Below are positions 2,818 through 49,624 of a DNA stretch of 52,443 nucleotides, piece by piece. The DNA is from a virus. Taxonomy: Duplodnaviria > Caudoviricetes. A program made the position numbers and the translations under genes. The DNA lies in IMG/VR virus record IMGVR_UViG_3300039037_000119, positions 1-52,443 of that record; one strand, 5' to 3'. The notes under the pieces are model-generated. The model worked only from the letters and a program-made list of their open reading frames with translations, was not told the origin of the DNA and did not search any database. Each line of letters starts with the position of its first letter. Position 1 is the stretch's first letter.

Positions 2818-3016
2818 TTTATATATACGAACACTAAATATTATATATTCTTGTAAAACAGTACCTCAGTACGAGGTAGCTGCTTCTTATATAGAGCTGA
2901 CAGACTTACCGGAAAGCTATAAACAAGGTTTACGTACCTTAGTGTATACCAGTATAGAGTCTTTAAGGAGCTACAATGATAAACTTAATACTAGCAAAAG
3001 AACGGAATATATCTGA
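2810..3016 (+). CDS. Hypothetical protein
   Basis: ORF with AGGAG RBS, overlapping the upstream gene. Confidence 0.65.
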   Translation: MSSLYIRTLNIIYSCKTVPQYEVAASYIELTDLPESYKQGLRTLVYTSIESLRSYNDKLNTSKRTEYI

Positions 3017-3308: not shown

Positions 3309-3341
3309 AGTGTTTTTAATGATGGATACAGGAGAAGAATA

Positions 3342-4390: not shown

Positions 4391-4431
4391 TGACTGATTA
4401 TATCAGTTGAAGCTTTTGAGAAATTGGAGGA

Positions 4432-4665
4432 TTGATTATGTTTAAAACTTATGAGTACGCTAACAACAATGGCAGTTTTGTGGCTTTCTTGGTAATGCTT
4501 ATTGGGATTATCAGCACAATAGTCGTCTTTACTCTGTTAACAGTGGCGTTTATCGAGTGGAAGATTGATTACGCAACAATTAGGGCATTAATCGCTTTCT
4601 CTGTACTAACCCAAGCACCCACTGTATTTGTGTTCTTTCATAAAAGGATGAACAAAGATGCCTAA
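4432..4665 (+). CDS. Hypothetical membrane protein (likely start ATG 4438)
   Basis: Two hydrophobic segments; GGAGG RBS. Confidence 0.65.
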   Translation: MIMFKTYEYANNNGSFVAFLVMLIGIISTIVVFTLLTVAFIEWKIDYATIRALIAFSVLTQAPTVFVFFHKRMNKDA

Positions 4666-4745
4666 AAAAACTAGAAACAATTAACGAAGTCCTACACGCT
4701 TTAGCTAATGGACATGAAGTGGAAGCAGCAGATAGGAAGCTTTGA
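4658..4745 (+). pseudogene. Small ORF broken at an A7 tract
   Basis: Removing one A at 4664-4670 gives MPKKLETINEVLHALANGHEVEAADRKL*. Confidence 0.4.
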
Positions 4746-4770
4746 CATCTATCAATTTAAACTATAAGAT
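4742..4770 (+). promoter_or_regulatory. Sigma70-type promoter
   Basis: TTGACA (4742-4747), 17-bp spacer, TAAGAT (4765-4770). Confidence 0.65.
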
Positions 4771-29617: not shown

Positions 29618-29805
29618 GTTCGTATGAAATCGTATTGTACGATAGTAAAAATTCCCGTATACTAGAGGAAATTAGCGACCTATCTATGATAGGTTCTAGC
29701 AATAAGGCCGAACAGTTGTTAGATGCTGTACCTGAAGCTACCTCTTATACTGTAAGTCGTATCCTTTATAACAGTAAATACAATGTTTGGGCTCCTAAAC
29801 AATAA
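29599..29805 (+). CDS. Hypothetical protein
   Basis: AAGGAGG RBS. Confidence 0.7.
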   Translation: MQIRSIGSYEIVLYDSKNSRILEEISDLSMIGSSNKAEQLLDAVPEATSYTVSRILYNSKYNVWAPKQ

Positions 29806-29824
29806 AACTAAAATAAGGAACAGC

Positions 29825-30826
29825 ATGAAACTACCTATAGAGACAGGAAACCCTTTATTCGGTCTGTACCTTTACCCTCAAGCTAAACATATTATGGAAG
29901 AGCAACAGGATAAAGCATGGACCGCACAAGAAATCCCTGTAGACAAAGATATATCTGATTACAGAAACAAGATGTCAAAGGAACAGTACAATATGGTATC
30001 TGTAACCCTTCAACTCTTCGTAGAGATCGAACAAACTGTAGGGGAGGTATGGGAAAAGATTGCTCATTGGTTTCCTCACAGTGAGATAGAGGGTTGTTGT
30101 GCTGAGATCTCCCGTATGGAGAAGTCTGTACATGCTTTCTTTTACCAAAAAATGTCAGATGAACTAAATATCAACCCAGAAGACATTTTAAAGAACCAGC
30201 AAACAATCCAAGTACTGAAAAGTAAACTAGAATTCTTAAAAGAGATTACATCTAACTTACCAAAAGATAAACCTCTAGCGTTAGCTACTGTAGCCTCAAT
30301 AGAGCAAGTTCTACTGTTTAGTAACTTTGCAATGCTTAAATCTTTCCAAGCTAACGGTCATAACCTAATCACCAATACGATTACTGGTGTAGAGTTTGTA
30401 ATCCAAGATGAGACCTTACACGGAGACTTCGCTGCCTACTTATTCAATACATATATGAAAGAATCAAATATGCGTGAGTCTACCAGAGAAGCTTTAAAAC
30501 AGGACATCCACAAACTCCTAAAAGAAGTAGTAGCACATGAAGATTCTGTAATCGAATACGTATTCGGAACACAGGAGTCTATTAACGATATCACAAAAGA
30601 TCAACTTAAGACATTCATCCGTTTCCGAGCAAATGAGACTCTTAAGCTTCTTCATTATGATCCTATCTTTGAAATTGGTAAGAACCCAATCAAAGACTGG
30701 TTCTACCGAGGAAAGGCATCTATCGTTCAACACGACTTCTTTAACTCAGGAACTTCCCAGTACAGACGAAATTGGAAAGTTGACAACTTCTCAGTCTTAC
30801 AATTTATGGAGGAACCTAATGAATAA
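29825..30826 (+). CDS. nrdB: Class I ribonucleotide reductase beta subunit
   Basis: AWTAQEI, EKSVHAFFY, IEQVLLFSNF, DETLHG, HDFF; start revised to ATG 29825. Confidence 0.93.
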   Translation: MKLPIETGNPLFGLYLYPQAKHIMEEQQDKAWTAQEIPVDKDISDYRNKMSKEQYNMVSVTLQLFVEIEQTVGEVWEKIAHWFPHSEIEGCCAEISRMEKSVHAFFYQKMSDELNINPEDILKNQQTIQVLKSKLEFLKEITSNLPKDKPLALATVASIEQVLLFSNFAMLKSFQANGHNLITNTITGVEFVIQDETLHGDFAAYLFNTYMKESNMRESTREALKQDIHKLLKEVVAHEDSVIEYVFGTQESINDITKDQLKTFIRFRANETLKLLHYDPIFEIGKNPIKDWFYRGKASIVQHDFFNSGTSQYRRNWKVDNFSVLQFMEEPNE

Positions 30827-32555
30827 ATATGACCAACTCTCATTCCAACGCAAGGAACTGCAAAAACAAGACCTAGCTCCTGCATGGATGTCTACAGCCT
30901 CTTTCCAAATGATAACGGAAAAGGCTTATTTAGATAGGGGTGAAAATCCTCGTGATATGTATACTCGTATCGCTAAACGTGCCGCTGAGCTTACCCGACT
31001 TCATAACGTAGAACGATGGGGCTACTCTTCATGGGAAGACGCTTTCTTCGACGTAATGTGGAAAGGTTGGCTTTCACCTTCCACCCCTGTCCTAACAAAT
31101 ATGGGCAATGAACGAGGTCATCCAATTGCATGTTCTGGCACCGATCTATCCGACAGCATCCCAGGCTTCTACGACGCACGTAAAGAGATAGCTCAGCTCA
31201 CTCAACGTGGTTACGGAACCTCATGGTGCCTAGACGCAGTCAGACCTAGGGGTTCTGCTATCTCTAAGGGAGGTACTGCTAATGGACCTATCCAACCTGC
31301 ATCGGGTGCTGTCCAAGACTGTCGTGAAGTCTCCCAAGGAGGAACTCGTCGTGGTTCAATCGGCCAATACTTAAACGTCCTATCTCCAGACTTTAAGGAA
31401 TTCGTAGACCAAATCATTGCAGATGATGACGGTTGGAATATAGGCTGGAACATAGATGAACGCTATCGTGAACTCTTTCGTACCGATCCTGCTAGTGCAG
31501 AAGAAATCTGGAAACAGATGCTGAAAGCCCGTATGGTCAAAGGAAAAGGCTACCAACTCTACTTAGATAAAGTAAACCGTGACCGTCCTCAAGTCTACAA
31601 AGACCTAGGTCTCCACGTAAAGCACTCAAACCTTTGCTCGGAAATCGAACTCTTTAATGACAAAGACCACTCATTCACTTGTGTACTTTCTTCGATGAAC
31701 ATAAGTAAATGGGACGAATGGCATGACACTAAAGCAGTCCAAATCGCTACGATCTTCTTAGATGCTGTAGTAGAGGATATGCTAATTAAAGCTCGTCAAG
31801 AAGAAGGTTTCGAACGTATCATAGCTTTTACCGAAAAGTCCCGTGCTATCGGTCTTGGTGTACTAGGTCTATCCACCTACTACCAACAAAGTGATATGAT
31901 ATTTGGTGACTTCGACTCTATTATGTTCAACCAAAAAATGATGCGTCACCTAGATACCGAATCTTTAGCTGCTTCTAAAACACTAGCTACAGAAATAGGT
32001 GAACCAGAATGGATGAAAGGTTACGGAGAACGTTTCTCTCACCGTCTAGCCCTTCCTCCAACTAAATCTACAGCCATCATCCAAGGTGGGATTTCTGAAG
32101 GTACTATGCCGGTCTTCGCCAATGTGTTTGAACAACGTACTGCTGGAGGTATTGTTTACCGTATCAACCCAACGCTCCTAAAGTTAATGAAGGAACGTGA
32201 TACATATAACGAAGATACTATGAAGCGTATATCGGAAGCTCAAGGATCTATTCAAGGCGAATCTTGGCTTACTTCTCATGAAAAGAAGGTATTCAAAACT
32301 GCTTTTGAACTTAACCAAGAAACCATCATCTTAATGGCATCTCACAGGCAACGTATTATGTCAGAAGGGGGTGGAGGTCAAGGCCAGTCTACTAACCTTT
32401 ACATCCAAAAAGAGGAAACCGAGGAAGAGATCTCTCGCCTACACTATATAGCTTGGCAAGACCCTTACCTACACTCACTCTACTATGTCCACTCCTTAAA
32501 CGAGGATTCTGTACATCAAGTAGACAAAAGTGTATGTGAAGGCTGTCAAGGCTAA
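30819..32555 (+). CDS. nrdA: Class I ribonucleotide reductase alpha subunit (no ATP cone)
   Basis: SPSTPVLTN, IAC, SNLCSEI, TCVLSS, GLGVLG, PTKST, LYY, C-terminal CEGCQG; start revised to ATG 30819. Confidence 0.95.
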   Translation: MNKYDQLSFQRKELQKQDLAPAWMSTASFQMITEKAYLDRGENPRDMYTRIAKRAAELTRLHNVERWGYSSWEDAFFDVMWKGWLSPSTPVLTNMGNERGHPIACSGTDLSDSIPGFYDARKEIAQLTQRGYGTSWCLDAVRPRGSAISKGGTANGPIQPASGAVQDCREVSQGGTRRGSIGQYLNVLSPDFKEFVDQIIADDDGWNIGWNIDERYRELFRTDPASAEEIWKQMLKARMVKGKGYQLYLDKVNRDRPQVYKDLGLHVKHSNLCSEIELFNDKDHSFTCVLSSMNISKWDEWHDTKAVQIATIFLDAVVEDMLIKARQEEGFERIIAFTEKSRAIGLGVLGLSTYYQQSDMIFGDFDSIMFNQKMMRHLDTESLAASKTLATEIGEPEWMKGYGERFSHRLALPPTKSTAIIQGGISEGTMPVFANVFEQRTAGGIVYRINPTLLKLMKERDTYNEDTMKRISEAQGSIQGESWLTSHEKKVFKTAFELNQETIILMASHRQRIMSEGGGGQGQSTNLYIQKEETEEEISRLHYIAWQDPYLHSLYYVHSLNEDSVHQVDKSVCEGCQG

Positions 32556-34746: not shown

Positions 34747-34904
34747 TGAAAAATTTCATACAATCCATTGGGATAGTGATGTCGTTAGTCATACTTACAG
34801 TCCTCTCATTTGTTACGCTTTACGTATCCTACATACTAGCAATAGGTATATTAATAGTAGGGCTTATATATATTGTATACTCCCTACTAAGTATGACTAG
34901 ATGA
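34746..34904 (+). CDS. 52-aa membrane protein; not in the ORF track
   Basis: MKNFIQSIGIVMSLVILTVLSFVTLYVSYILAIGILIVGLIYIVYSLLSMTR*; TAATG coupling; GAGGA RBS. Confidence 0.65.
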   Translation: MKNFIQSIGIVMSLVILTVLSFVTLYVSYILAIGILIVGLIYIVYSLLSMTR

Positions 34905-37900
34905 GCCCCATATAGGTCTCTTCTTTAACTAGTGCTGGTGTAGTGATATTAGTAATTATCTCTACAGGATTGGAGTTAGTAAATACATTAGTAAAGGAGA
35001 AATCCCCATCTGTTCCAAACCCTTTAGTTAAGAATGCTTGATCTTGTATATTATCAAGGTCTATAGCTAATACTGCTAATGCTAGTACTGCAGAACTTCT
35101 GATAGGATGTTGTAGTGCAGTAGTAGCAATTACTCGTTGAACCCTTTTCACATACTTAGTGAACATCAACACACCAATCCTATTTAAGTACTCTTCAAAC
35201 CTACCGTTAGGTTTATTGTAGTTAATAAACGAGTCTAACAAATGGTTTATCCTATACTCCTTAGACTTCTCTAAAAACTCATCCCTTAAAGCACCTGTTA
35301 TCTTTACAGGTTTATCGGATTTAATACCTATAGCTTCTCTTAACGCTTTAGGTACAACCCTCTTACCATCCATCATAGCTGTCTCAGCTCTCTTCATCTT
35401 CTTATTCTGCACATCTCTAGCAATCAAATCAGACAACTGTAATATTTCCTGGTTAAATCTATACCATCCAGTCTCTTTACTTAAATACGCCCATTGTAGT
35501 CCTTTACGTACTGCTACAGGACTTTTCTGTAAGACCTTATCCATTTTATCAGATAACGTATTAGAATCCCCTAAAACATCCGTATTTACATCTTCAACCA
35601 CAGACTGAAACAACCCTGCTTCAAATAATTCATGTACAGAGTTCTCTTCCAATTCCTTATTTAAGACTTTCAATCTAGCCTTTTTCTTTTTAATATCTGT
35701 AAGCACACTACTCTTATCGGTAGCATTACTCCTAAGAACACTTTCCAGCTTACTTATTTCAATACCTAACCTATGTATTTCCCTATAACCATCTAGGTAT
35801 GCCTTAGCACTCTGGTAACTCTCCTTATGCATTTGCAATAATTCAATAGGGCCTGCTCCTCCAGTAGTAAGTAAGTACAAGAAGTTACTTACAATATTAC
35901 TTACCAGTATAGCTGGCATTTTCAGTAATATATTACCTTTAGCAATCTTAACCAATTCAATCCAAAACCCTTCCACCATATTAACTAGTTGTGTCAATAC
36001 TTTAGGTAGCACTTTTCTTAGCTTTTCTGTTAGCATCATATGCTTATACCCAAACAACATCGGTACCAGTGAAGCTGGCACTGCCATTGTCTGATCCGCT
36101 CTATGGTTAATGAACTCTTGAAAACTCTTAGGCAGCATATAATAAAGCTCTTTCATCTCTTCGTTTTCGCTTTCAGGTCCAATCAAAACAAACTCTTCAC
36201 CATCTTTCCCTACCGGTCCGAATTCCCAATTCTCTTTCATAGTTTTCTTGATCATATCAAGTACTTTTTCGTTATGTTCTTCTCGTACTTCTTTATCAAT
36301 TATACTTCCCATTGACCTAGATAAAATAGTTATTACATCTGTTTCCTGCCCCAACAACTTTTCTTTCTGCTCTTTACTCATCATATACCTATAGTTAACT
36401 ACTTTCCCTGTAGCATCCTTTATCGGCATCATCCCCATACCAATTTCACTATAATCTATATCTTCGCCTTTACTCATCTTTATACGAATCTTCTCCGCTT
36501 CAAGGTCAATTCTGGCTTTATCTCTTTTAAACAGCTTCCCACCTAGTTCTGGATCCTCTAAGTACTTTATCTCCCTTAGGTCTGTACCTCTAGCAGCCAA
36601 ACTACTTAAATTCGTAGCTCCTCTAAACCTTTCCGCTTTCGAGAACGAGTTCGTTACAAACATCCCTACAGGTTTCTTACGGATCTCTCCATTCTTGGCT
36701 GGTACTTCTCCTTTAAACTCATACCCTGCAGATTCCATTTCTGCTCTTTTACTCATCGGCTTATACGCAATCTCGATACCACTGTCAAAAATTTCTTTAG
36801 AATACCCATCCATCATATGAGCTTCATCACCCTTAAACAACCTAGATCTCGAATCCTTTTTAAACCCTTCGTAGACATCCATAAGATTGCTAACACCTTT
36901 CCAGTCATCTTTCATCAGGTTACTAACTAACTTCTTATCTTCCTTACTAGTATATTGTAATGCTGTTAGCACAGAAATCTCTTCTACTAAAGCCACTAGA
37001 TCCGCATCAATTTTAAATCTCTCATTAGACAAATCACCTTTAACAATACTTCTAGCATTAGTATTTAACCCAGGATGCCCCTGATGAGTAGCCATAAAAT
37101 ATCCTAGCCCTTTACTCTGCCCTACTACCCAATCATACCTATGCCCCTCACCAGCAGCATTTAACGCTCCTTTTAAGGACTTCAATGCAGTCTCACGTCT
37201 CTTTAACCTAGCCTCATCACTATCGAGTACTTTTCTGACATCCCTATTATTATACTTATGCCTAGACCCTCTAGTGTACATCAAAGCACTTAAATTAACA
37301 TCCAATACAGCTCTAGTTAGTGCTCTAGATTCTTTTTCGTTAGGTCTACGTTTAAATGCTGCTTCTAAATCCTTACCAGTTTGTACAATATTAGTGTTAC
37401 GTATCGTATCTAAATGCTCATTCTCAAGACTCAATCTTTCCGCTGCTCTAGCATGGTCTGTAGATGCTACAAAACTACTAAAAAACTCCCTAACAGTCCC
37501 TCCAGCCTTTAAAGGAATGCCCACAGTACTCCAGTTAGACATTAACAAACCTAAGTAGTTTCTATACTTCCTATTAACCATAGCTTTTATAAGAACTTCA
37601 GCAGCAAACTTCATACCAGTAACAAAATCATCTGATTGAGGTACTTTAATCTTATCTTCTACAGTAAAATACTTATCTTGAAACTCTTCAGCCCAATCAG
37701 CAAACTTACCTTCAGTATTATCAATAGCATTATAGAATCTACCTATTAGATTAGTTTCTTCAATATGACTGTCTGCAGTATTATTAATATCCGCCAATCT
37801 AAGACTCAATGCATGTAATTGGGCCACTGCATTATTATTACGCTCTTTAAAAGCATACTTCCCTAACACGATATCGAATAAAGTATGAACAACATTCATT

Positions 37901-39081
37901 ACCTTATCTAGGAAAGTTTTATTGTCAGTATCTTCCTTAATACTATCCATTTTAGTAAGTAACGCAATAGTTTTAGGGTGAGTCAAACCATGAGCTAAAA
38001 ATTCATCTTTAGCATTCTCACTCTCGAATATATAACTATATAACTCTTTAGCTTTAGTCTTATCAGAATCGCTTGCTTCTTCTTCCGGCATATCTAGGTA
38101 ATCCTGCCAACTAACCCTTTCGCTAGCTACCTTAAATAAATGGTTAAGTTCTCTCCTAATAGTAGGTAATTTATCACTATCGCTACGCAAAGCCCATGAA
38201 GTCATACTATGTACTACCTCATGTAAATAAACTTCAGCATTGGACTTTTCTTTAGACTTATCCTTACCTGTAACAATAACCATGTCACTTTCGTCTAGGT
38301 TGATCCAACCACCGGATTTATCCTTCGTATTCTTAATAAACAAGTCCATCTTTCTAAAGAAATGAGGATGCATACCATCTAATAAAGTCTTACCATATTC
38401 TACATATTCTTCACCGGCATTACCTTCATCAATAGTGTTCAACTCATCTAGTAATCTCTTCATCTGGTCTATATCACCATGCGTATACTCATCCCTACGC
38501 TTAGCACCTCGAGTATTCAAACTAGCTCTGTCACTAGCTATTCTAAGCTGCTTACGAATCCTTGCAATCTCCGCATTACCGTTTTCTTTAGCTTGTTCTG
38601 GGTCTAGTGTACTAGTTACCATCTCCTTAGTATTACTAGCTTTATATAGTACAGTACTCATATTAGGTACATACAGTTGCTTACCTCTATAGCTAGGTAA
38701 CGATCTATCTGTACCAGGTTTGAACTTAAAAGTATAAACTTTATCATTATCCAAATTCTTCATAGTAATTGTATATAAATTACCATTATTAATCTGTTCT
38801 ACATCCATCAGAGCAAAACGTATATTAGCCTCTTTACTAAATCCTGCATAGAACACATCAGTAAGCTCTTTCCTAACCGCAGTAAAAAGAACTTCATCCC
38901 TGTGGCTATTAAGAGCTTCTAAATCTTTAGTATCTAAAGTTCTGTAAGCACCAGTAACCTTATCCTGCAGATGACGTAAATCTACCCCATCACTGGTTAC
39001 TTCAATACCTTTATCCAACAACCCGTTAATTTTTGTTAAACTATTTTTAAGGTATTTTTTATACTCTACAGAACAACTCAT
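34897..39081 (-). CDS. Large virion/ejection protein resembling the C-terminal part of the N4-type vRNAP; contains a zincin HExxH motif
   Basis: YLHEVVHSMT..DEFLAHGLT; C-terminal FINYN..GRFEEYLNRIGVLMF recalls N4 gp50 C-termini; TAATG-coupled to the polymerase gene. Confidence 0.7.
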   Translation of the reverse strand: MSCSVEYKKYLKNSLTKINGLLDKGIEVTSDGVDLRHLQDKVTGAYRTLDTKDLEALNSHRDEVLFTAVRKELTDVFYAGFSKEANIRFALMDVEQINNGNLYTITMKNLDNDKVYTFKFKPGTDRSLPSYRGKQLYVPNMSTVLYKASNTKEMVTSTLDPEQAKENGNAEIARIRKQLRIASDRASLNTRGAKRRDEYTHGDIDQMKRLLDELNTIDEGNAGEEYVEYGKTLLDGMHPHFFRKMDLFIKNTKDKSGGWINLDESDMVIVTGKDKSKEKSNAEVYLHEVVHSMTSWALRSDSDKLPTIRRELNHLFKVASERVSWQDYLDMPEEEASDSDKTKAKELYSYIFESENAKDEFLAHGLTHPKTIALLTKMDSIKEDTDNKTFLDKVMNVVHTLFDIVLGKYAFKERNNNAVAQLHALSLRLADINNTADSHIEETNLIGRFYNAIDNTEGKFADWAEEFQDKYFTVEDKIKVPQSDDFVTGMKFAAEVLIKAMVNRKYRNYLGLLMSNWSTVGIPLKAGGTVREFFSSFVASTDHARAAERLSLENEHLDTIRNTNIVQTGKDLEAAFKRRPNEKESRALTRAVLDVNLSALMYTRGSRHKYNNRDVRKVLDSDEARLKRRETALKSLKGALNAAGEGHRYDWVVGQSKGLGYFMATHQGHPGLNTNARSIVKGDLSNERFKIDADLVALVEEISVLTALQYTSKEDKKLVSNLMKDDWKGVSNLMDVYEGFKKDSRSRLFKGDEAHMMDGYSKEIFDSGIEIAYKPMSKRAEMESAGYEFKGEVPAKNGEIRKKPVGMFVTNSFSKAERFRGATNLSSLAARGTDLREIKYLEDPELGGKLFKRDKARIDLEAEKIRIKMSKGEDIDYSEIGMGMMPIKDATGKVVNYRYMMSKEQKEKLLGQETDVITILSRSMGSIIDKEVREEHNEKVLDMIKKTMKENWEFGPVGKDGEEFVLIGPESENEEMKELYYMLPKSFQEFINHRADQTMAVPASLVPMLFGYKHMMLTEKLRKVLPKVLTQLVNMVEGFWIELVKIAKGNILLKMPAILVSNIVSNFLYLLTTGGAGPIELLQMHKESYQSAKAYLDGYREIHRLGIEISKLESVLRSNATDKSSVLTDIKKKKARLKVLNKELEENSVHELFEAGLFQSVVEDVNTDVLGDSNTLSDKMDKVLQKSPVAVRKGLQWAYLSKETGWYRFNQEILQLSDLIARDVQNKKMKRAETAMMDGKRVVPKALREAIGIKSDKPVKITGALRDEFLEKSKEYRINHLLDSFINYNKPNGRFEEYLNRIGVLMFTKYVKRVQRVIATTALQHPIRSSAVLALAVLAIDLDNIQDQAFLTKGFGTDGDFSFTNVFTNSNPVEIITNITTPALVKEETYMGLI

Positions 39082-42000
39082 TACTTACATTCCTTATATT
39101 TATCTGTTACATCACCTAATGCTGACACAAGCTCTAGTATTTCTTTACCTGGAGATGGTGGCTTCTTAGACTTCTTTTTACTCCTAGTATCAGCCATAAC
39201 TTTGTATAGGCCCCTAGTTTCAAACTCAGTCTCATAGTCACTATTAACCTCTACACCTTCTTTGTACATACCACCAGGAGTACCAACCATATTGCCATAC
39301 CAAGCAGTCTTAAGACGATCAGCCCACTCTTCTCTCTTAGCTTTAACTAGGTCAGCTTTGGTTTTAACACGTTCTTGTACCTTACCTAGTACTTCTCCAA
39401 AACCAGGTGCTTCTTTGCCTTTTTTAGTCATGCTTATAGTAGTTTTTAGACTTTTAGAAGAAATCTGATCAAGGTTTACACCATCTAGGTCAATCCTATT
39501 CATCATATTTTGTATCTCTTCTACGATAGAATAACCACTATTGACATTAAACATACCTTTATTATAGCCAAATAGAGCAGTGTTTGACTCATCTAGTGCA
39601 GTCATTATAGCATCATGGATACCTAAAATCCCGGCTTTATCGCTATCAACTTCCTTATAGAACTCTTGGAACATCAAAGCCATCTCAGCACCATCTATAA
39701 AATGGTAAGGTAATACAGAACCAGCACTCCTAGCTTCTTCCATAGAGTAGACTAACGGGTTTATAACAATACCTGTACCACCTTTAGTACCTTCTTTTTT
39801 AAGTTTAGTACGACCAGACAAAGCAGCTTGCTCTATTTGATTAGGTGTACCCAGACCTTTAGATACGACAGGTATAATATCCTTAAAATCTTTTCTCTTA
39901 CTTAGTGGTCCCATAATGTAAGGAAAGTCTGCCCAAAGCTTATCTTGTATCTTACCCATATCCTCTTGGTTAAAATACCCTTTATCTTTATAAGCTTCTT
40001 TAAGCATATTAATACGTTTACTATCGAAAATCCTAAACATAGCTTTAAAAGCATCATTAGTGACTTCTTGTATATCTAAGTATTCGGCAAACTCTTTCTC
40101 AAATACTGTCTTTACCTCTTCCCCGTAGGTATCTTTCATGACACCAGCTAACCCATTGAGCATAGTATCAGTACTATTACCGACTAATTGCATCTTAATA
40201 GCGTTAGCAGGCCTATTCCTGATAGCTTGTTGTAGCTCCTTAGGAGAAATCTTCTTCATAACAGGAGCACCAGCAGCCCCTTCTGTCCTGATACCAAACT
40301 TACGACTATTGGCTAAGTACTCCAACATCAAAGTACCTTTATCTTCAGGATCCTTTAAATCCGCTTTAGCCATGGTAGAAATCAAGTCTTTACTGATATC
40401 AATACCTAAATTCTTAATAATAGTACTAATAGCAGCACTATAGTTAAAAATCATAAAAGGATTTTTAAACATATTACGTAAAGAAGAGCTAATCTCTATA
40501 CTAGATTCATCAACAAGCGTATGTAACATATCAGAACCAGGTAGTACATCTAGTGACGCTAGTTTATTAAACATAGTCTTTTTATAAGCATTTTTCTTAG
40601 CTTCTTTTGTATTACCTTTACCTAAGGCTTCTACTCTATTAGGTAATCCAAGTAGTGTTTTCTTAGCTAGGTTTTTATAGCTATCTAAGAATCCTTCTGC
40701 TCCACCTAAGACATCATTAACAGCCCCATTAGTACCTATCTTAACCTCAAATCCTTGACTCTCTAACTTAGCTAGGTACTCTTCAGTCAATACACCAACC
40801 CTAGCTAAGTGCTCATGCATAGTAGCATCATCGAAGATAGGCATTTGTTGAACCTTGTTAGCAAAACCACTAGTTAAGGAGTCAAATTCTGCAGTAAGCC
40901 TACTGGTAACCTTACCTGTCTTAACCTGCCTCAAGAAATCAATACCATCTAATGCATGTGTAAGATGCTCTGCTTCTACTTTTACAACACCATTAGATGT
41001 TTTAATAGAAGCTTCTCCTTTGTCTAGTAGTTTAGTCTCTAGCTTATCTAGGTCTTTCTCAGTCAACCCCAATAGCTTATTACCAAATTCGATGATAGCT
41101 GGTGTAACTTCTTTATCTATACCAAAACCAAAGGCTTGTCCTAATGCCATCCTAACTAAGAAAGACACCTTCTTACCATCAGAAGTGAACACACCATCTT
41201 TATACTCATACACCCTTTCATTTGCTTTAGGCTGTATAAGAAATCTATGTAATTTATCAGTTTGAGGATTAATTGTAGTACTATCTAGCTGATAACGACC
41301 GTTATTAATATAGTAAAAAGGGAAATACAGATCTAGGTCCTTCCCATCAGCCTTTTCCGCTGTATCCCTAAGATTCTGGATAGATTCTTCTATATCACGG
41401 TTTTTACTGATCTGCATATCTTTTTCTTCAAAAGTCAAAGCTTCAAATGCACTACTCTCAGGGTCTATATACCCAAGCTGTTTAAATACTCCTTCCTTAT
41501 GGGCATCTACTTTAGCTAGGAAATCCACCACCTTACTTGTCTCGAACGTATAGGCAGTATCCATCATGTTACGTAAAGTATCTTGTGCTTCTTTAGGAGG
41601 TACAAACCCAACCTCATCGTTATGTACAGAATTGACCTGATTATTCAAAAACTTTTCACTAAAAGGTTTTAAACTAGGTCCTCTGCCTACTGTACGAACC
41701 TCTGGTAACCTATCAGCAATACCTTCAAATGTAGCCAAGGCTCTATCCACTTTCTTAACAGGTACTTCTTGTTTACTTACCTTGTCTTTCTTACTTACAA
41801 TATTGACAAAACCTACGTTAATCTTATCATTAGACACGTTATAGTCAGATGTAGTATTTTTAAGTAAATCGGCTAAGTCTTTACTAGGCTTATTTTTAAA
41901 CTCTACTAAACCTTCTGCCTCAGCTGCAAGTAAAGCTGTTTGCCCTAACTCTGCAATAAATCTTTCATATGTGTTGTAACCTAGGTCTTTAGCATTTTTC

Positions 42001-45000
42001 TTACTATAACCCAACAACTTAGCCACATTCTTACCAACACTAGTAGCTAAAGTCTTTTTCAAGCTACCGATATCCTTAACGAAGTCCATCATTTCTTTAG
42101 TGACTTCATGAGGCTGTACGTTAAACATTTGACCTATCTGTTCTACGTTTTTATAACCTTTCATTAGCTTACGTTTATCTGTACTAATAGTATCCAGTAC
42201 AGCCAGTCCCATAGCAGCGGCAACCTCAGGAGCAATACCACTGCCATCAAATATCAAAGCTCTAGCAGGAGAATCGTATAGGCCGTACTTAGCAACTCTG
42301 TCACCCTTCTTAACTAGTGTGTCGTACTCTTCTCCTACTGCCTTCTCACCCTTACCTAAAGGTTGTAGAATCTTCTCAAGAGCCTTTTTAAAACGACCGG
42401 CTACTTCTTTAACGTCTCCAGGAAGAGCTTCAACAGGTACAGAACCTAATAGAGTTTTCTTACTAAGAGTAACAAATTTACTAGGATCCACCGTAACCTG
42501 TTTAACACTGATAGGTATTTTTCTATACTTGCGTCCTTTGCTTGTATGAGGTTCTGGTTTCTGTTTTAAATACTCCGTTGCCTCCTCTTCTGAGTACGAT
42601 TCTACAGAGATGGTTTTATCTACACCTTCATCTCTCCATTTACCATTAACAAATACTTCTTTCTTAAAGGTATACTCAACTAGGTCAGGTTTATCTTTAC
42701 CTACAGCCTTCTCTTCTAGTAAACTTTTACTGACAGAGCCCATATCTATAGCCATACCTAGGTCTTTCGCTTTCTTTTCTAAAACCTCTTCAAGCTTCTT
42801 ACCTTTGAGACCCTCTTCTTCTACAGCGTCTTTCCAAAAAGCTAACAGCTCTAATACATCCTTATCAACTGTTTTACTCTTCTCAATATCTCTTTCTGCA
42901 AGAGTGGTAATACTATCAGCATCATAAACAATATCAGCCTCTTCCACTTTACCTGCATTGTACCCTTCCAAAGACTTCTTAACAGCATCTACACGCTCTT
43001 TAAGATTTCTTTCTACATAAGAATCTACCTTATCTGTATCACCTTTAAAGTACTCTTTAGCAACTTCTTTAATAGTTTTATTGTACTCAGTCCTAGAACT
43101 AGTAGAATCCCCGACAGCTAGATCAGCAGCCATCTCCACTATACTATTAAGGGCCTTGTCCTTAACAGCTTTAGCCTTCTTCTCCGTAGCTCGTTCTTTC
43201 TCTACTGCCTTTTTACGTTCAGCAAAGTCTACTACACGAGCATCTGTCTTAGGTACATAAGCATCCGTACCAGGGACATTAGTATAGCCTACCTTATCGC
43301 CAGTAAGAAATCTCCTTACACTGACACTAGCTTTATTGTTAGTCTTGTACTCCCTATCCAGAACAATAGTGGCACCAGCCTTAGCAGCTTTCAACACCTC
43401 TTTCCTAGCAGGGTTACTAGCATCGTACAAAGTAGTGATATAGAAAGTCTTATCACCCTTTTTATATGTAGTTGCCATAGCATTCAATAAAACTACATCA
43501 CTAGCTTGATATTCTTCATCTCCGTTAATAATACCTACATTAGCCTTTCTATAGTCACTATTAGCAGCCCATTTAGGTGAGGTACCTCCATCCTTCTCAT
43601 CAAGAATAACCCTAGATACACGACTAGGTACACCTACCTCATCAAGTACTTTGCTAGTCTTACTTAAATAATTTTCATCATAAGATCTAGCTTTGTCCTT
43701 ACTAGACCCTTTAGGTATGATAAAGGTATCTAAAGCAACTTTATCACCTAGATACTTATAACCTTTAGACCCTACGTCTTTCAAAATGCTTAGAATTTCG
43801 TTACTACGCTCTTTCTTCTTACTAAGACGTTTCTCTGCTTCTTTTAAATCCGGAGTCCACTTGCCACTAACATAAGATACGGCAATATCAAACCTCTTAC
43901 GATTACCTTTCCTATCCTTCTCATCTTTCAAATAGTCAGTAAGGACTAGTACACGTTTACCAGGCTTACCTAACGCATTTAACCTAGCGGCTTCTTCTTT
44001 AGCCTTCTTGATACCCTTCTCTAGATTTTTCTGGGAGTTTAAGGTAGCAGAATAAAAACTAGTCAACCTATCAAATTCTTTCTCTACAGCCTTAGTATCA
44101 GGATCGCCACTCTCTAAAGCACCCATAATCCTATTTTCAGCAGCTAGGAAACCTCTATCACCATCCCTAGCTTCTTCATCTACACTCTCATAGCTCTTAA
44201 TGATCTTACCGATACGTTCTTCACTCATACCGTTAGCTTTACCGAAAGTAGTAAGTTTTCCTACAAACTCATCAGTAATAGCTTTATCACTACCAAGAAT
44301 AGTATGCATCACTCGTTCTGCTTCTATAGCTTTATCAGGTACAGTGGCACCATCCTTCTCTAGAACTTTCTTATCCAGATTAAGATTAGGATTCTTTTCA
44401 ATCATCCCTATAACAGTATCGATAGCGGTGCTAATTTGTTTTTCAGCTTGTGCTAACAATTCTTTATTAGGACTATCAGCAACCCCCTCTCTACTATCCT
44501 GCGCCTTAGATATAAAATCCATAACAGACCCTAGATTATCCTCAGTGATACCTTCATCATTGACGGCTCTAAGACTCTTAACAGAAGATATATAATCAGC
44601 CCTAAGACTAGCTTTAATATCCTCATCTAATACAGGAGGCTCTTCTTTAGAAACTACATACTTATCCTTAATCTCAAGTCCTTTACCTAGTCCTTTCTGT
44701 ACAGCTTGTCCTACTGCACCTACACCTTCAAACTGTACAGCTCCACCAGCACCAGCTAACGCAGCAATACCAGACTCTCTTATATTGTCTTCATCACTGA
44801 CAAACTTCACAAAAGTATCTAGGTCTTGGAACTTCTCACTACCAAACTTCTCGTTGAACATCTCCATCATGGTTTGAGCGTATTCCTGACCAGCTTCTTT
44901 ACTCATATTCAAAGTACCGCCAGTAATAGTCTTACTAACACCTAAAGCAAAATCAGAAAACTCTTTATTACTTAAAGCTTTAACGGTATCTTTAGCGGCC

Positions 45001-47060
45001 CCTAGCATAGCAGGATTCTTCAAAATACCTACATCTACAATTTTCTCTAAGTTCTGGTTAAACATCTGCACACCTAGTCTAGTGGCAAACCAATTAACCT
45101 TATCCATACCCTCTAAAGGAACACCATCATTATTTGCTACAAAAGCATCATACTGGGCGTTAACGTTACCTAGTGCTGCACTTAACTGACCAGATTGTGC
45201 TACTAGTGCTGACTTAAGTCCTTCAGCTCCTGCAAACACTTTTGCTTTCTCAGCTGCTGCTTGAACAGAGTTTAGAGTACCTTCAAGCTTAGCCTTATCA
45301 ATAGCTCGCAGTGCTTTAAACCCTTGAGCACCATAACCAAGCACCTTCAGAATCTTACCAGGGGCTAACCACGCTGCTACTGTACCTAGTGAAGTAGTCA
45401 ACAACTCAGGGGTAGTAATAGCTTCAATAACCCCATTAAACCCAGCCTTCACTCGATCTGCTATAGAAGCATTACCGTCAGTAAGGATATCAAACTGCTT
45501 ACCGACATAGTCCATAGAAGACTCTAATAATAGCGGATTATAACCCGTTACATCATATTTATGGGCAGCCTTATCTTCTTCTGCTATAAGGTCACCACCT
45601 GCTACCTGTTCTGCAAAAAAGTCAGCAGGATCTAATACACCTTCACCATAAAAAGCATCTACAAAACCTTTAAGAGCGTTACCTACCCTATCAAGCCCAT
45701 CCATACTATCTGCTTTATATTTAAGGTATTCCTCGTCTAAAGACCTATTTTGAATCTTTAACGAACTATCTGAAGTACCAGTATCATAATATGTTTCTTT
45801 ACCTAGGTTGAAGTACTCTAGTCCTGATGTGTTATTGGCATCAACATTGTCAAGACCTTCTTTAACCTTACCAGCCCCTAACAAATGAGCAGCAGCTAAA
45901 TAACCTTGTACATCTTCTGGTAGGGTATTATCATCAATAACCCCAATAGAGCGTAATACATTTTCATTGAACGCTAAATTCTCATCAAAAGCCTTATCTT
46001 GCACTTCCTTACTAGATAGAAAATCTTCTAATGATTCTACACCGGACTTACCTGTCCAATTATCAGCATTTTCTAAAGCCTTATTACCTTCTTTAGAGGA
46101 TCCTTTTTTCAGGTACCCTAAAGTTTCTAGAGCAGAGGCACCAAACTGGTAACCTCCAGAGTACCCTAGATCATTACGTACACTATAATCACCACCAGAC
46201 TCTCTATGCAACATAGTATCACGAAAGCTTTTTTTATCCCCAGCAGGTCGAACTGCTTTTTGCTTAACCTGACGTAGGCCAAAACGTTCCTCAAAGTCTT
46301 TCCACAGCTTTTCTTTATCACCAATTTCATACTGTCTAGAATCACCACCAAAAGCACCTACAGACCCATCTGAGTAAGCTTCTGTAGAACCAGTACCAAA
46401 CCTATCCTTAAAACCAGTTTCTAGATCCGCCCTATGGTTCATAGTACTACGATTACCATGCTGTAATCCTTCGGATATCTTCTCAATACCTCTAGGGTAC
46501 AACAATTCCATCCTAGACTGCTCTATATCTACACCGCCAGGACCTATAGTATTACCATAGTAATCTAGTCCATCTTTCCCTTGCTTGTTAGTGTATCTAG
46601 TGTCAGGGTTAGCGCCGCCCCAACGACCATACTTATCTACACCTTCCGTACCAGTACCGTAACCATAGTAAGACCCTAGATCCTCACTAGTACCTTGATA
46701 AGGAGCTAGTTGCCCTGAGGAATCCTTAGTAGTTAATGCTCCTGTCTCAGGGTCTTTAAAAACTCCATATTCACTATATAACCTACCTTCAAGGTACTGT
46801 AACTGTGCAGGGTTATAGTCATTAACAATCTTATTGCCGTACCACTCATCTTCCCTGCCGAAGATAGTACCTTTTTCATCCTGTAAATCATTACCTTGTA
46901 GACCAGTAAGTTTATACTCACCTACACCTAACTTCTTCCCTCTATTCCTAGATAAAGTATCAATTTTACTAGTACGGATATCTTGTTCAAAAGGTTGGTT
47001 TACATAAGCATCATACATCTCATCACTGATATAGGTTCCGAATGGGTCATTGGTAGACAT
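39081..47060 (-). CDS. Virion-encapsidated single-subunit RNA polymerase (N4 vRNAP-like) with N-terminal lysozyme-like domain
   Basis: NGRYQL..NPQTDKLHR, motif A EFDSLTSG, motif B RNMFKNPFMIFNYS, motif C IHDAI; N-terminal RESGGDY..GGYQFG..LAAAHLLGAG. Confidence 0.88.
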   Translation of the reverse strand: MSTNDPFGTYISDEMYDAYVNQPFEQDIRTSKIDTLSRNRGKKLGVGEYKLTGLQGNDLQDEKGTIFGREDEWYGNKIVNDYNPAQLQYLEGRLYSEYGVFKDPETGALTTKDSSGQLAPYQGTSEDLGSYYGYGTGTEGVDKYGRWGGANPDTRYTNKQGKDGLDYYGNTIGPGGVDIEQSRMELLYPRGIEKISEGLQHGNRSTMNHRADLETGFKDRFGTGSTEAYSDGSVGAFGGDSRQYEIGDKEKLWKDFEERFGLRQVKQKAVRPAGDKKSFRDTMLHRESGGDYSVRNDLGYSGGYQFGASALETLGYLKKGSSKEGNKALENADNWTGKSGVESLEDFLSSKEVQDKAFDENLAFNENVLRSIGVIDDNTLPEDVQGYLAAAHLLGAGKVKEGLDNVDANNTSGLEYFNLGKETYYDTGTSDSSLKIQNRSLDEEYLKYKADSMDGLDRVGNALKGFVDAFYGEGVLDPADFFAEQVAGGDLIAEEDKAAHKYDVTGYNPLLLESSMDYVGKQFDILTDGNASIADRVKAGFNGVIEAITTPELLTTSLGTVAAWLAPGKILKVLGYGAQGFKALRAIDKAKLEGTLNSVQAAAEKAKVFAGAEGLKSALVAQSGQLSAALGNVNAQYDAFVANNDGVPLEGMDKVNWFATRLGVQMFNQNLEKIVDVGILKNPAMLGAAKDTVKALSNKEFSDFALGVSKTITGGTLNMSKEAGQEYAQTMMEMFNEKFGSEKFQDLDTFVKFVSDEDNIRESGIAALAGAGGAVQFEGVGAVGQAVQKGLGKGLEIKDKYVVSKEEPPVLDEDIKASLRADYISSVKSLRAVNDEGITEDNLGSVMDFISKAQDSREGVADSPNKELLAQAEKQISTAIDTVIGMIEKNPNLNLDKKVLEKDGATVPDKAIEAERVMHTILGSDKAITDEFVGKLTTFGKANGMSEERIGKIIKSYESVDEEARDGDRGFLAAENRIMGALESGDPDTKAVEKEFDRLTSFYSATLNSQKNLEKGIKKAKEEAARLNALGKPGKRVLVLTDYLKDEKDRKGNRKRFDIAVSYVSGKWTPDLKEAEKRLSKKKERSNEILSILKDVGSKGYKYLGDKVALDTFIIPKGSSKDKARSYDENYLSKTSKVLDEVGVPSRVSRVILDEKDGGTSPKWAANSDYRKANVGIINGDEEYQASDVVLLNAMATTYKKGDKTFYITTLYDASNPARKEVLKAAKAGATIVLDREYKTNNKASVSVRRFLTGDKVGYTNVPGTDAYVPKTDARVVDFAERKKAVEKERATEKKAKAVKDKALNSIVEMAADLAVGDSTSSRTEYNKTIKEVAKEYFKGDTDKVDSYVERNLKERVDAVKKSLEGYNAGKVEEADIVYDADSITTLAERDIEKSKTVDKDVLELLAFWKDAVEEEGLKGKKLEEVLEKKAKDLGMAIDMGSVSKSLLEEKAVGKDKPDLVEYTFKKEVFVNGKWRDEGVDKTISVESYSEEEATEYLKQKPEPHTSKGRKYRKIPISVKQVTVDPSKFVTLSKKTLLGSVPVEALPGDVKEVAGRFKKALEKILQPLGKGEKAVGEEYDTLVKKGDRVAKYGLYDSPARALIFDGSGIAPEVAAAMGLAVLDTISTDKRKLMKGYKNVEQIGQMFNVQPHEVTKEMMDFVKDIGSLKKTLATSVGKNVAKLLGYSKKNAKDLGYNTYERFIAELGQTALLAAEAEGLVEFKNKPSKDLADLLKNTTSDYNVSNDKINVGFVNIVSKKDKVSKQEVPVKKVDRALATFEGIADRLPEVRTVGRGPSLKPFSEKFLNNQVNSVHNDEVGFVPPKEAQDTLRNMMDTAYTFETSKVVDFLAKVDAHKEGVFKQLGYIDPESSAFEALTFEEKDMQISKNRDIEESIQNLRDTAEKADGKDLDLYFPFYYINNGRYQLDSTTINPQTDKLHRFLIQPKANERVYEYKDGVFTSDGKKVSFLVRMALGQAFGFGIDKEVTPAIIEFGNKLLGLTEKDLDKLETKLLDKGEASIKTSNGVVKVEAEHLTHALDGIDFLRQVKTGKVTSRLTAEFDSLTSGFANKVQQMPIFDDATMHEHLARVGVLTEEYLAKLESQGFEVKIGTNGAVNDVLGGAEGFLDSYKNLAKKTLLGLPNRVEALGKGNTKEAKKNAYKKTMFNKLASLDVLPGSDMLHTLVDESSIEISSSLRNMFKNPFMIFNYSAAISTIIKNLGIDISKDLISTMAKADLKDPEDKGTLMLEYLANSRKFGIRTEGAAGAPVMKKISPKELQQAIRNRPANAIKMQLVGNSTDTMLNGLAGVMKDTYGEEVKTVFEKEFAEYLDIQEVTNDAFKAMFRIFDSKRINMLKEAYKDKGYFNQEDMGKIQDKLWADFPYIMGPLSKRKDFKDIIPVVSKGLGTPNQIEQAALSGRTKLKKEGTKGGTGIVINPLVYSMEEARSAGSVLPYHFIDGAEMALMFQEFYKEVDSDKAGILGIHDAIMTALDESNTALFGYNKGMFNVNSGYSIVEEIQNMMNRIDLDGVNLDQISSKSLKTTISMTKKGKEAPGFGEVLGKVQERVKTKADLVKAKREEWADRLKTAWYGNMVGTPGGMYKEGVEVNSDYETEFETRGLYKVMADTRSKKKSKKPPSPGKEILELVSALGDVTDKYKECK

Positions 47061-47158: not shown

Positions 47159-49213
47159 CTATGGGTAACTTTTACGAAGATTTTCCATAACCATTAAGTA
47201 CGCTTCTCCTTTAGGGATGCCTAACCTTTCTGCAATAGCTATAGCTTGGTCCTCTAGACTGGCCCCTACCTCACTAACACTAGTGTTATAGAAGTTTTTA
47301 AAATACTCCTTAACTAGATCAGGATGGTTAGGAGCCAAAGCTTGCATAACTTTATCCTGGAATTCTCTATTCCCACTGTTTAACGCTCTTGCAGCAAGCT
47401 CTCTTCCTAAACCTACATTACGACCTACATACTCTTGTAGTCCTTGTACCGTAGGATCATAAGAAGGTGCTTTAGGTGCCTCCGCTACAGGTCTTTTAGG
47501 TACTTCAGGTACCGCAGGAGCCTTCTCTGTAAGAGCGTAACGGCTTTCCTTAGGCTCAAAAAACCCGCCTTCTTTACGGCTTAACCCCATATCATCCAAA
47601 GTATCTGATATCCATTGCCCTGCTTGACTAAACGCAGCACCTACCTTCTCTCTTGCAGCCACCTCTTTAGGGTCATTCCATCTAGACGCTACTAAGCCCT
47701 TCAAGTAACTTCTGTTATCTGCCCCTTGTTCCAGGCCGTAATCCACAAGTCTACCAAAAGCAGCCCTGTTATCTGCCCCTTGTTTTATACCTTTTTCCAC
47801 AAGTAGATTAGGAGTAGGGTTTGTATTCCTTAAAGCCCTATTTCGACTATACCTACTACTAGATGTTTTAGGATCTACCTCTTGTACAGCAGGTTTTTCA
47901 GTCAATCCTCTGTTCTGTAACTTCAAACGCTCCTTATTAAGGGCAGCATCTAATCTAGTGGGTTCAGCTTCGCTTAACCCGTCAGTTATCGTCTCTTCTT
48001 TTCTAGTACGTTTAGGTGCTTCTTTCTTTCCATTTTCTTTGGTCTCCGAAGCAGTACTAACCTCACCTTCAGGCGCTTTTGCGATACGGTTAAGCCGTTC
48101 TAGCGCCCTTTCTAATCTATTTGCCTTGGGGTTTATATTAGGATTAAGCATCTTAGGAGTATTAGTTGAGACATAGTTAGCAATATTATTAGTACCTCCA
48201 GCTTCTAAATCCTTAGCTAGTGCCAATATTTGAGCTTTCTTATCCTCAACAGGTACTTTCTTGTTACCAAAGACAGCATCTGTCTCCATATACCTAGCCA
48301 TAGCTTCTGCCATAGCTTTAGGGCTTATACCCTTTTCAGTAACACCAAATTTTAAAAAGTCCATAGCACTACGAGTATCAAACCAACCGGTATCTAGTCC
48401 TTTTACAGTCTCCATAGCATCGGTTATAGAACCGCCAGTAAAAGAGTTCTTACTCCCAGACCTAGCTTTATTCGCAGCTGCTGTAAGCTTATCTCTAGCT
48501 ATCCTATCCTTCTGCTCAAAGGTTGCTCTCCATTGACGATCTTTATTCGCATCTTTCACAGAGTCGGCATATGCCTTCTTAACATCCGCTTCACTCTGAA
48601 ATCTACCCGAAATCTTAGGCTCTAATTCCAATAACGTAGCAGGATCTAGTCCCATCTCTACTCCTTGCTTCAATGTAGATGCTTGTACCTCACCCCTAAG
48701 AGGCGTGTACCCAGTGTAAGTCTCAATTACCTCACTACCTAGATCTCCTGTAGCCCATACATCCTGCCTAAGCTGCTCACGTCTAGCATCTAGATTCGCA
48801 TCTTCCGCACTCAAAAGCCCATGACGCACGTTCAGCTCATCTTCCTGTATAGCCTGTTCCCTAGCTTGTAGCTCAGGACTTTGAGCCAACGTACGGTTAA
48901 ACGCGTCCACAGCACCCGCATTAATCTTATTTCTATCCGATACGTTAGCTGCCAATGCATGTGCAGGAAGGTTACGACTCGTATTAAGGATCAAATCCCT
49001 ACTTAACGCATCCTGCTCCTCTGCTTTAGCCCTATCCTCACGCTTCCACTGAAGCTGTTCTTCCGCTCGCTTATTCTCTAGCTCAAGCTGCTTTCTCTGC
49101 AAAGCAAGCTGCTCTCTCTTGTCTTTCCTATCTAGGTAGTTTGCATACGTAGCACCCAACTCACTCATTGGATTTCCAATACTGCCTACACTTACTTGAG
49201 TCGGTCTACTCAT
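47159..49213 (-). CDS. Putative internal virion/ejection protein (N4 gp51 position)
   Basis: 684 aa, helical, Cys-free, adjacent to the vRNAP gene; assignment by synteny and size. Confidence 0.6.
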   Translation of the reverse strand: MSRPTQVSVGSIGNPMSELGATYANYLDRKDKREQLALQRKQLELENKRAEEQLQWKREDRAKAEEQDALSRDLILNTSRNLPAHALAANVSDRNKINAGAVDAFNRTLAQSPELQAREQAIQEDELNVRHGLLSAEDANLDARREQLRQDVWATGDLGSEVIETYTGYTPLRGEVQASTLKQGVEMGLDPATLLELEPKISGRFQSEADVKKAYADSVKDANKDRQWRATFEQKDRIARDKLTAAANKARSGSKNSFTGGSITDAMETVKGLDTGWFDTRSAMDFLKFGVTEKGISPKAMAEAMARYMETDAVFGNKKVPVEDKKAQILALAKDLEAGGTNNIANYVSTNTPKMLNPNINPKANRLERALERLNRIAKAPEGEVSTASETKENGKKEAPKRTRKEETITDGLSEAEPTRLDAALNKERLKLQNRGLTEKPAVQEVDPKTSSSRYSRNRALRNTNPTPNLLVEKGIKQGADNRAAFGRLVDYGLEQGADNRSYLKGLVASRWNDPKEVAAREKVGAAFSQAGQWISDTLDDMGLSRKEGGFFEPKESRYALTEKAPAVPEVPKRPVAEAPKAPSYDPTVQGLQEYVGRNVGLGRELAARALNSGNREFQDKVMQALAPNHPDLVKEYFKNFYNTSVSEVGASLEDQAIAIAERLGIPKGEAYLMVMENLRKSYP

Positions 49214-49222: not shown

Positions 49223-49624
49223 CTACCTTAGAGCCGATGCAATGTTTCTACGGTTTTGTTGATTCTCAGCAGCAAACTGCCTATTCTGTCTCAAACCTTT
49301 AAGCTGTTCTTCATACAAAGGAGCTAGTTGTAGATAGCTAGCAAGACCTAACGCCCCTGTCATCAACCCTTCGTTACCCAGCACACTAGATACGCCATCC
49401 CAAGCACTGTCTGCAAAGTCTCCAATACTGCTTAGACTTAATCCATCTAAACCTCCAGACGTACCCTGATCCAAGGCAGATCCTTTCAACATATCCGTAA
49501 TCTGAGTACCTGTATACCCATCCCGAGCCAATTTATCTATCAACCCTGGCTGGTACGCCCCCTTACTGAACGATCCACCTGCAGTACCTACACTACCAGC
49601 CAATCCTGTATTTTCAATAGTCAT
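49223..49624 (-). CDS. Putative small ejection protein (N4 gp52 position)
   Basis: Gly-rich, hydrophobic GLMTGALGLASY segment, then a Q/N-rich helix; synteny. Confidence 0.6.
   Translation of the reverse strand: MTIENTGLAGSVGTAGGSFSKGAYQPGLIDKLARDGYTGTQITDMLKGSALDQGTSGGLDGLSLSSIGDFADSAWDGVSSVLGNEGLMTGALGLASYLQLAPLYEEQLKGLRQNRQFAAENQQNRRNIASALR

Follow-up and report, generated by a model that had tools for sequence, protein, structure and literature searches.

The virion RNA polymerase (vRNAP) of phage N4, gp50, is a single chain of about 3500 residues, and single-chain vRNAPs are also known from other Schitoviridae, among them DEV gp71 and the vRNAP of LUZ7. Cysteine is avoided in the ejection operon of these phages: its frequency was reported as 0.00075% in vRNAP homologues versus 0.865% in whole proteomes, and an explanation has been sought in the route that the proteins take through the tail and the periplasm (PMC11445570, PMC3715699). 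According to structures obtained by cryogenic electron microscopy in 2026, N4 vRNAP consists of three domains with two flexible, unresolved linkers, at residues 907-1007 and 2102-2123, and is proposed to exit in a loosely folded state, like beads on a string, along a channel about 35 Å wide. In the same model, the N-terminal domain follows gp51 out first. The C-terminal domain was found to bind the polymerase reversibly and to inhibit it (PMC13434306, PMC13492108). Here, we describe a vRNAP that is encoded in two pieces in the IMG/VR virus record IMGVR_UViG_3300039037_000119. The whole 52,443-base record, with an estimated completeness of about 50%, was analysed and is called the window below. 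The only two cysteines of this vRNAP lie one on each side of the break.

A split vRNAP is also found in the Alteromonas phages vB_AmaP_AD45-P1 to P4, in which ORF126 and ORF127 encode pieces of 2481-2495 residues (depending on the choice of start) and 1409 residues. Resequencing upheld the stop codon between the two genes, and gels showed the two products as separate polypeptides of 270 and 175 kDa (PMC3821669). That paper contrasted the split form with the "cysteine-free" N4 vRNAP; its accessible text gives no gel conditions and does not mention the cysteines at the junction (PMC3821669). A search of full-text literature, supplements aside, found neither junction cysteines nor a disulfide link, and neither is mentioned in the accessible texts of PMC3821669, PMC11445570, PMC3715699, PMC13434306, PMC10654107 and PMC13492108. 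The split (AD45, 2013) and the avoidance of cysteine are already known. What is new is an exception to this avoidance and its location.

A virion RNA polymerase encoded in two pieces

On the minus strand of the window, open reading frames (ORFs) of 133, 684, 2659 and 1394 amino acids follow one another in this order. The two large ORFs matched different parts of the same profile, phrog_2206. Residues 1293-2544 of the upstream piece corresponded to profile positions 787-1905 of 3406 (E = 6.9e-49), and residues 215-1355 of the downstream piece to positions 2272-3379 of 3406 (E = 7.1e-133). A tblastn search matched 281 phage records, annotated mostly as virion RNA polymerase. By homology, the two ORFs together are a split N4-like vRNAP, in which the N-terminal domain and the polymerase are on one chain and the C-terminal domain is on the next. 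A Pfam scan gave no match for either piece, and a blastn search with the junction region against GenBank phages gave none either.

The locus was then compared with the described systems. As in N4, DEV and LUZ7, the polymerase and C-terminal domains are homologous and cysteine is avoided almost totally. The vRNAP genes follow two cysteine-free ORFs, as gp50 follows two cysteine-free ejection-protein genes in the N4 order gp52-gp51-gp50; this correspondence is one of position and size only, and a profile search of the PHROG type returned no family match for the 684- and 133-residue ORFs. However, where N4 has a single giant chain of about 3500 residues and no cysteine, the window has two ORFs overlapping in the sequence TAATG, with one cysteine on each side of the break. 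Another difference from the N4-type single-chain vRNAPs is a lysozyme-like segment in the N-terminal domain. The two-piece layout, with one cysteine at the junction end of each chain, is shared with the AD45 phages, of which AD45-P1 is the nearest cultured relative (34% identity over the C-terminal piece). The AD45 phages are nevertheless only distant relatives, and their two genes are 7 nucleotides apart, whereas those of the window overlap by one base.

Two cysteines in 4053 residues

The initial annotation had drawn attention to positions 39073-39089. It claimed that each vRNAP piece has a single cysteine, at the penultimate position of the first chain and at position 3 of the second, that the two neighbouring proteins have none and that N4 vRNAP is free of cysteine. 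All of this was borne out by the translations. The sole cysteine of the 2659-residue chain is residue 2658 (..KYKECK*), that of the 1394-residue chain is residue 3 (MSCSV..), and the noted span runs exactly from one cysteine codon to the other. No cysteine was found in the 684- and 133-residue proteins, nor in N4 gp50 (3500 residues), gp51 (644 residues) and gp52 (150 residues), and the absence from gp50 is also in print (PMC3821669, PMC11445570, PMC3715699). The split vRNAP is thus not entirely free of cysteine as N4 vRNAP is, and its two cysteines in 4053 residues are both at the junction. AD45-P1 also has exactly one cysteine per chain, and its junction pair reads ..KHCKQ* and MTICT...

The 49 plus-strand ORFs of the window were used as background, with 103 cysteines in 9797 residues (1.05%). 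At this frequency, 42.6 cysteines would be expected in 4053 residues, against 2 observed (Poisson P(≤2) = 3e-16). Given one cysteine per chain, placement of both among the last or first 6-7 residues next to the junction has a probability of about 1e-5. Chance was dropped as the source of the pattern on the basis of this deficit and this placement.

Cysteines at the breaks in related loci and proteins

A profile search of IMG/VR yielded 18 loci, of which 12 had the junction, 3 were unsplit across it (L009, L010 and L017) and 3 ended before it (L002, L013 and L014). With the window included, 15 junctions in 13 loci could be inspected. All 15 had a cysteine on both sides: the upstream one is separated from the stop by 0-3 residues, and the downstream one is residue 3 or 4 of its chain. 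Two of these loci encode the vRNAP in three pieces. In L006 (2497 + 408 + 1356 residues), the middle piece has two cysteines in all, Cys3 and Cys407. In L018 (at least 2519 + 641 + 1378 residues), the middle piece has exactly two, Cys3 and Cys640, and the first piece has one additional cysteine, at residue 1288. The three unsplit loci have none.

The DNA around the junctions was variable. Over 14 junctions, the cysteine codon was TGT in 10 and TGC in 4 on each side, and the intergenic spacing ranged from -1 to +26 nucleotides. Since both codons are used and the spacing varies, selection acts on the residue rather than on the DNA. At tightly coupled junctions, a purine-rich word lies directly 5' of the upstream cysteine codon, and the frequent K-E, E-G and K-G pairs ahead of the upstream cysteine probably reflect this ribosome-binding word for the next gene. 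The cysteine is still present at the long-spacer junctions of L004 and L005, which have a GGA word of their own.

Conservation was then examined in larger protein sets, which partly overlap the DNA loci. Five homologues of the C-terminal piece were retrieved by a word-index search, and all of them have one cysteine, at the chain start. An exhaustive HMMER search with the first 1200 residues of this piece gave 1304 matches at E ≤ 0.001, and the best 150 of the 1304 were analysed. Together with the 5 homologues and the window protein, they made up a pool of 155 sequences. Eighteen were set aside as fragments (shorter than 1100 residues or with more than 150 N-terminal residues missing), 14 of them without cysteine. 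The others were counted as 124 downstream pieces (1100-2799 residues) and 13 long proteins (at least 2800 residues). A cysteine was found at positions 3-7 in 117 of the 124 downstream pieces, at position 3 in 83 and at position 4 in 24, and it was the sole cysteine in 115. On the other side of the break, the end of the upstream piece was used as query and matched 42 homologues with 24-50% identity. Including the window protein, all 43 upstream pieces had a cysteine 0-5 residues from the C terminus, which was the sole one in 40. The initial annotation had proposed that the two chains are joined tail to head by a disulfide in the virion, can be packaged or ejected as one thread and then separate in the reducing cytoplasm, and that a lack of conservation of the terminal cysteines in homologous split pairs would refute this. 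The outcome clearly favours the annotation: these cysteines proved to be conserved at the DNA junctions (15 of 15) and in the upstream (43 of 43) and downstream (117 of 124) pieces. The cysteine column was invariant in the alignments of upstream ends (A2) and downstream starts (A3), with mean column identities of 21% and 37%, respectively.

Cysteines were absent from the outer ends of the split vRNAPs, that is, from the N terminus of first pieces and the C terminus of last pieces. P0171 (1734 residues) has exactly two, Cys3 and Cys1733, and we regard it as another middle piece because of the cysteines at both ends. Among the 13 long proteins, 8 had no cysteine, 3 had a common CxxxxC in the C-terminal domain and 2 had 2 and 6 cysteines. 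The three with CxxxxC (P0119, P0145 and P0154) are unsplit proteins of about 3500-3700 residues and otherwise cysteine-free; the motif (..NQC[IL]MQGC..) occurs late in the domain, and its two cysteines may bind a metal or form a disulfide within the chain.

Break points and switching between split and unsplit forms

In L019 and L008, the longer downstream pieces begin with a region that is homologous to the 408-residue middle piece of L006. Therefore, the chain can be broken ahead of a variable module, behind it, or on both sides. A third break site is indicated where the N-terminal domain meets the polymerase. P0140, P0143, P0149 and P0151 (2377-2438 residues) have a cysteine at the start, and the N termini of P0140, P0149 and P0171 map to about residues 1280-1320 of the window upstream piece, which is this boundary. 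The evidence for the third site comes from the downstream side only: a search for stand-alone N-terminal-domain pieces ending in cysteine found none, no such piece adjoins P0140 in its locus, and no locus was found for P0171 in the viral collection.

Two further observations concern chain ends. The locus of P0140 (L021, encoding this 2438-residue polymerase plus C-terminal-domain protein) also has a 5'-open ORF at 3-287 that ends in ..LEKCG* and a 140-residue ORF at 4334-4756 that starts with MANC, its only cysteine, which hints that other virion proteins encoded there may follow the same end-cysteine rule. P0060, a 639-residue fragment, ends in ..FFTYCKTK*. It stops about 118 residues short of where the C-terminal domain usually ends, and this may be a further break point inside the domain.

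When profiles of the upstream ends and of the downstream starts were matched to unsplit relatives, the two matches met without any intervening sequence; in L010, the first ends at residue 1863 and the second begins at residue 1857. The break was more difficult to place on N4. A phmmer search with N4 gp50 against the upstream pieces gave nothing, BLASTP gave only two weak matches, and the profile of upstream ends had no match in N4. The profile of downstream starts puts the junction roughly at N4 residues 1980-2190, a range that spans the published linker at 2102-2123 without pinning it. The break thus appears to fall roughly at the flexible linker between the polymerase and the C-terminal domain of N4, at a place where unsplit relatives are continuous.

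A FastTree phylogeny of the C-terminal domain was constructed from 141 sequences and rooted on L017; some nodes were weakly supported. Cysteine-free unsplit forms were nested among split forms, and sister pairs differing in state were found with support values of 1.00 (P0073/P0074), 0.99 (P0083/P0103) and 0.81 (P0107/P0129). With nine cysteine-less pieces scored as unknown, Fitch parsimony required a minimum of 8 switches from split to unsplit or back.

What the junction cysteines may do

Conserved cysteines that occur together on both partner chains at the contact site would be expected of proteins with an inter-chain disulfide. They are found here, and most unsplit forms have no cysteine. 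We consider it probable that the two junction cysteines form one inter-chain, tail-to-head disulfide that replaces a peptide bond in a flexible linker. Such a bond would account for the presence of cysteine only at internal chain ends and on both sides of every break, for a cysteine number of twice the number of breaks, and for the loss of cysteine in continuous chains. It would also account for the position of the cysteines within a few residues of the ends, as expected of a thread with short side branches. Because each cysteine is at most 5-6 residues from a chain end, the branches on the thread would be tiny, and because other cysteines are nearly absent, only one pairing would be possible.

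The same cysteines could be used in other ways. They might bridge like chains (upstream to upstream, downstream to downstream) or bind other virion parts instead of joining consecutive pieces. There are several vRNAP copies per virion (PMC13434306), and sequence alone cannot show which cysteine pairs with which. However, bridging of like chains leaves unexplained why cysteines occur on both sides of breaks and only there, why middle pieces have one at each end and why they are lost in unsplit forms; as for other virion parts, the portal-side ejection proteins encoded upstream had no cysteine in 10 of 10 loci. We therefore regard this explanation as unlikely. Pairs of cysteines at chain ends can also bind metals, and a zinc, iron or copper ion shared by the junction cysteines would clasp the chain ends non-covalently. 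The pairing across each junction fits such a clasp as well as it fits a disulfide, but two thiolates alone make a weak, incomplete site, and no conserved histidine, aspartate or extra cysteine was found beside either cysteine, where the neighbouring positions vary. A clasp of this kind would also hardly survive the unfolding that accompanies ejection, and we consider it quite improbable.

Two other possibilities concern the genes rather than a bond. If TGT or TGC were kept for a DNA or RNA reason, such as translational coupling or re-initiation, the ribosome-binding word directly before the upstream cysteine codon at tightly coupled junctions would be explained. Against this, both codons occur, the spacing is variable, the cysteine lies anywhere from 0 to 5 codons from the stop and from 2 to 6 codons from the start, and it is kept in L004 and L005, whose long spacers have their own GGA word. 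A role for the nucleotides is thus very unlikely. It is hardly credible either that the break is unreal (a sequencing error or a recoded stop) or that the pieces are rejoined by protein splicing, with the cysteines as intein remnants. Cysteine is the usual intein nucleophile, and split inteins share with the window the presence of two genes and a cysteine at the junction. The GenBank label "potential frameshift" for the AD45 region would favour an artefact. However, more than 100 diverged sequences have the two genes in this arrangement, with spacers that differ, and in AD45 the stop was resequenced and two polypeptides were found (PMC3821669). A recoded or frameshifted junction and a DNA-level signal were accordingly dropped on spacer variety, codon use and the AD45 resequencing. 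A split intein was rejected as well. With 0-5 residues after the upstream cysteine and 2-6 before the downstream one, these overhangs of 0-6 residues leave no room for N- and C-intein halves, no Hint or intein domain was matched in Pfam, and in the AD45 gels the pieces were two polypeptides rather than one spliced product (PMC3821669).

Several observations weigh against the disulfide. Seven of the 124 downstream pieces (P0061, P0080, P0081, P0092, P0120, P0121 and P0152) have no N-terminal cysteine. P0080 shares a 90% cluster with a 3078-residue cysteine-free member and for this reason is probably a truncated unsplit form. Among the other six, P0092 and P0120 are sister sequences in the phylogeny, and a search for DNA loci of P0061, P0081, P0092 and P0120 found none. 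The six may be genuine exceptions, or they may be truncated or have a miscalled start. In L015, an in-frame TGA followed by ATG (1105-1110) lies inside the polymerase domain without a cysteine alongside, where it interrupts the conserved ..HFIDGA|E.. motif at a usually conserved glutamate. Possible explanations are a sequence error, a nonsense allele, read-through of the stop and a true break that has no bridge; in the last case, it is a counter-example. Since virions are assembled in the reducing cytoplasm, the bridge could close only at a later stage. When 10 small cysteine-bearing ORFs of the window, which is about half a genome, were scanned with Pfam, no thioredoxin, glutaredoxin or thiol oxidase was found; the scan gave one HNH nuclease and two matches below the curated cut-off. 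The support for the bond is comparative throughout, and the counts are not all independent events, because the protein sets overlap the loci and relatives share ancestry. A complex prediction for upstream residues 2300-2659 with downstream residues 1-500, made with the window sequences alone, gave an ipSAE of 0.03 with an uncertain partner fold and was counted neither way.

If the tail-to-head disulfide exists, the following course may be envisaged. The two chains would first associate non-covalently and be packed together in the reducing cytoplasm, and the bridge would close after the virion reaches oxidising surroundings. The polymerase would then exit through the tail channel of about 35 Å like beads on a string, loosely folded and with the N-terminal domain in front, and the bridge would keep the string unbroken so that the trailing piece is drawn out behind. 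In the cytoplasm, host thiol reductases would open the bridge, and the C-terminal domain could then leave the polymerase. We infer late closure, a need for the bond in ejection and reductive opening each with less confidence than the link itself. A broader proposal is tentative. It holds that chain continuity is a mechanical need of delivery, so that any cut, whether between the N-terminal domain and the polymerase, the polymerase and the variable module, or the module and the C-terminal core, is stitched by a disulfide. The stitch might double as a sensor of arrival in the cytoplasm, its reduction freeing the polymerase from the inhibitory C-terminal domain and, in forms cut after the N-terminal domain, from a membrane anchor. 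On this view, the split phages would have gained a release switch that single-chain N4 is without.

Two-chain bacterial toxins offer a parallel. They have one inter-chain disulfide, without which translocation fails and which the cytosol reduces; as proposed here, it ties a cargo chain to its partner through a narrow channel, and reduction frees the cargo. However, the toxins have no kinship with the vRNAP in sequence or structure. Their chains arise from a nicked precursor and the bridge closes a loop, whereas the vRNAP pieces come from separate genes and the proposed bridge is end to end.

Other features of the locus

The coordinates of the features are collected in Table 1.

Table 1. Features of the split vRNAP locus (window coordinates)
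Feature	Position	Strand	Basis
Upstream vRNAP piece (N-terminal domain + RNA polymerase domain), 2659 residues; sole Cys = residue 2658	39081..47060	-	phrog_2206 + ORF translation
Downstream vRNAP piece (C-terminal domain), 1394 residues; sole Cys = residue 3	34897..39081	-	phrog_2206 + ORF translation
TGT codon of Cys2658, penultimate residue of upstream piece	39087..39089	-	column invariant, alignment A2 (41 sequences)
TGT codon of Cys3, downstream piece	39073..39075	-	column invariant, alignments A1 (6 sequences) and A3 (42 sequences)
TAATG, in which the upstream-piece stop and the downstream-piece start share one base	39079..39083	-	sequence
AAGGAA within codons K2656-E2657; likely ribosome-binding site for downstream piece, judged from the sequence	39090..39095	-	
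RNA polymerase homology region of upstream piece, residues 1293-2544	39429..43184	-	phrog_2206
Lysozyme-like segment of N-terminal domain, residues 274-423	45792..46241	-	phrog_27932 (baseplate hub subunit and tail lysozyme), E = 1.3e-29
EVYxHExxH motif of C-terminal piece, residues 283-291, invariant or nearly so	38209..38235	-	alignments
684-residue ORF, Cys-free; positional counterpart of N4 gp51 (ejection protein)	47159..49213	-	gene order
133-residue ORF, Cys-free; positional counterpart of N4 gp52 (ejection protein)	49223..49624	-	gene order

Some homologues have precomputed matches to PF01464 or PF00959. The lysozyme-like segment would put a cell-wall hydrolase on the ejected polymerase. 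The EVYxHExxH motif, about 285 residues into the C-terminal piece, resembles a zinc-protease signature and possibly binds zinc; in P0080, a cysteine lies inside the motif. A putative zinc-binding motif has been reported for DEV gp71-C (PMC11445570). On the plus strand, the ORFs for the small (29783-30826) and large (30633-32555) subunits of ribonucleotide reductase overlap by about 190 nucleotides as listed, and the start of the large subunit was probably called too early. Two HNH endonuclease genes (1259-1750 and 7930-9156, plus strand) were identified by Pfam PF01844 and phrog_1314.

Implications

For annotation, gene pairs of this kind are real splits, and a cysteine close to the terminus of an ejection protein that looks "truncated" is not necessarily due to a sequencing error. 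The 2026 structural work on N4 leaves open how a 380-kDa enzyme passes through a 35-Å tail (PMC13434306, PMC13492108). The rule found here, that natural chain breaks are flanked by the only cysteines of an otherwise cysteine-free protein, is separate evidence, drawn from evolution, that the polymerase has to pass as a single continuous thread, and it shows which linkers tolerate cutting. If confirmed, the vRNAP would be the first disulfide-stitched, redox-released phage ejection protein described, as far as the literature search shows, and nature would have supplied a design for the delivery of proteins as parts that can come apart.

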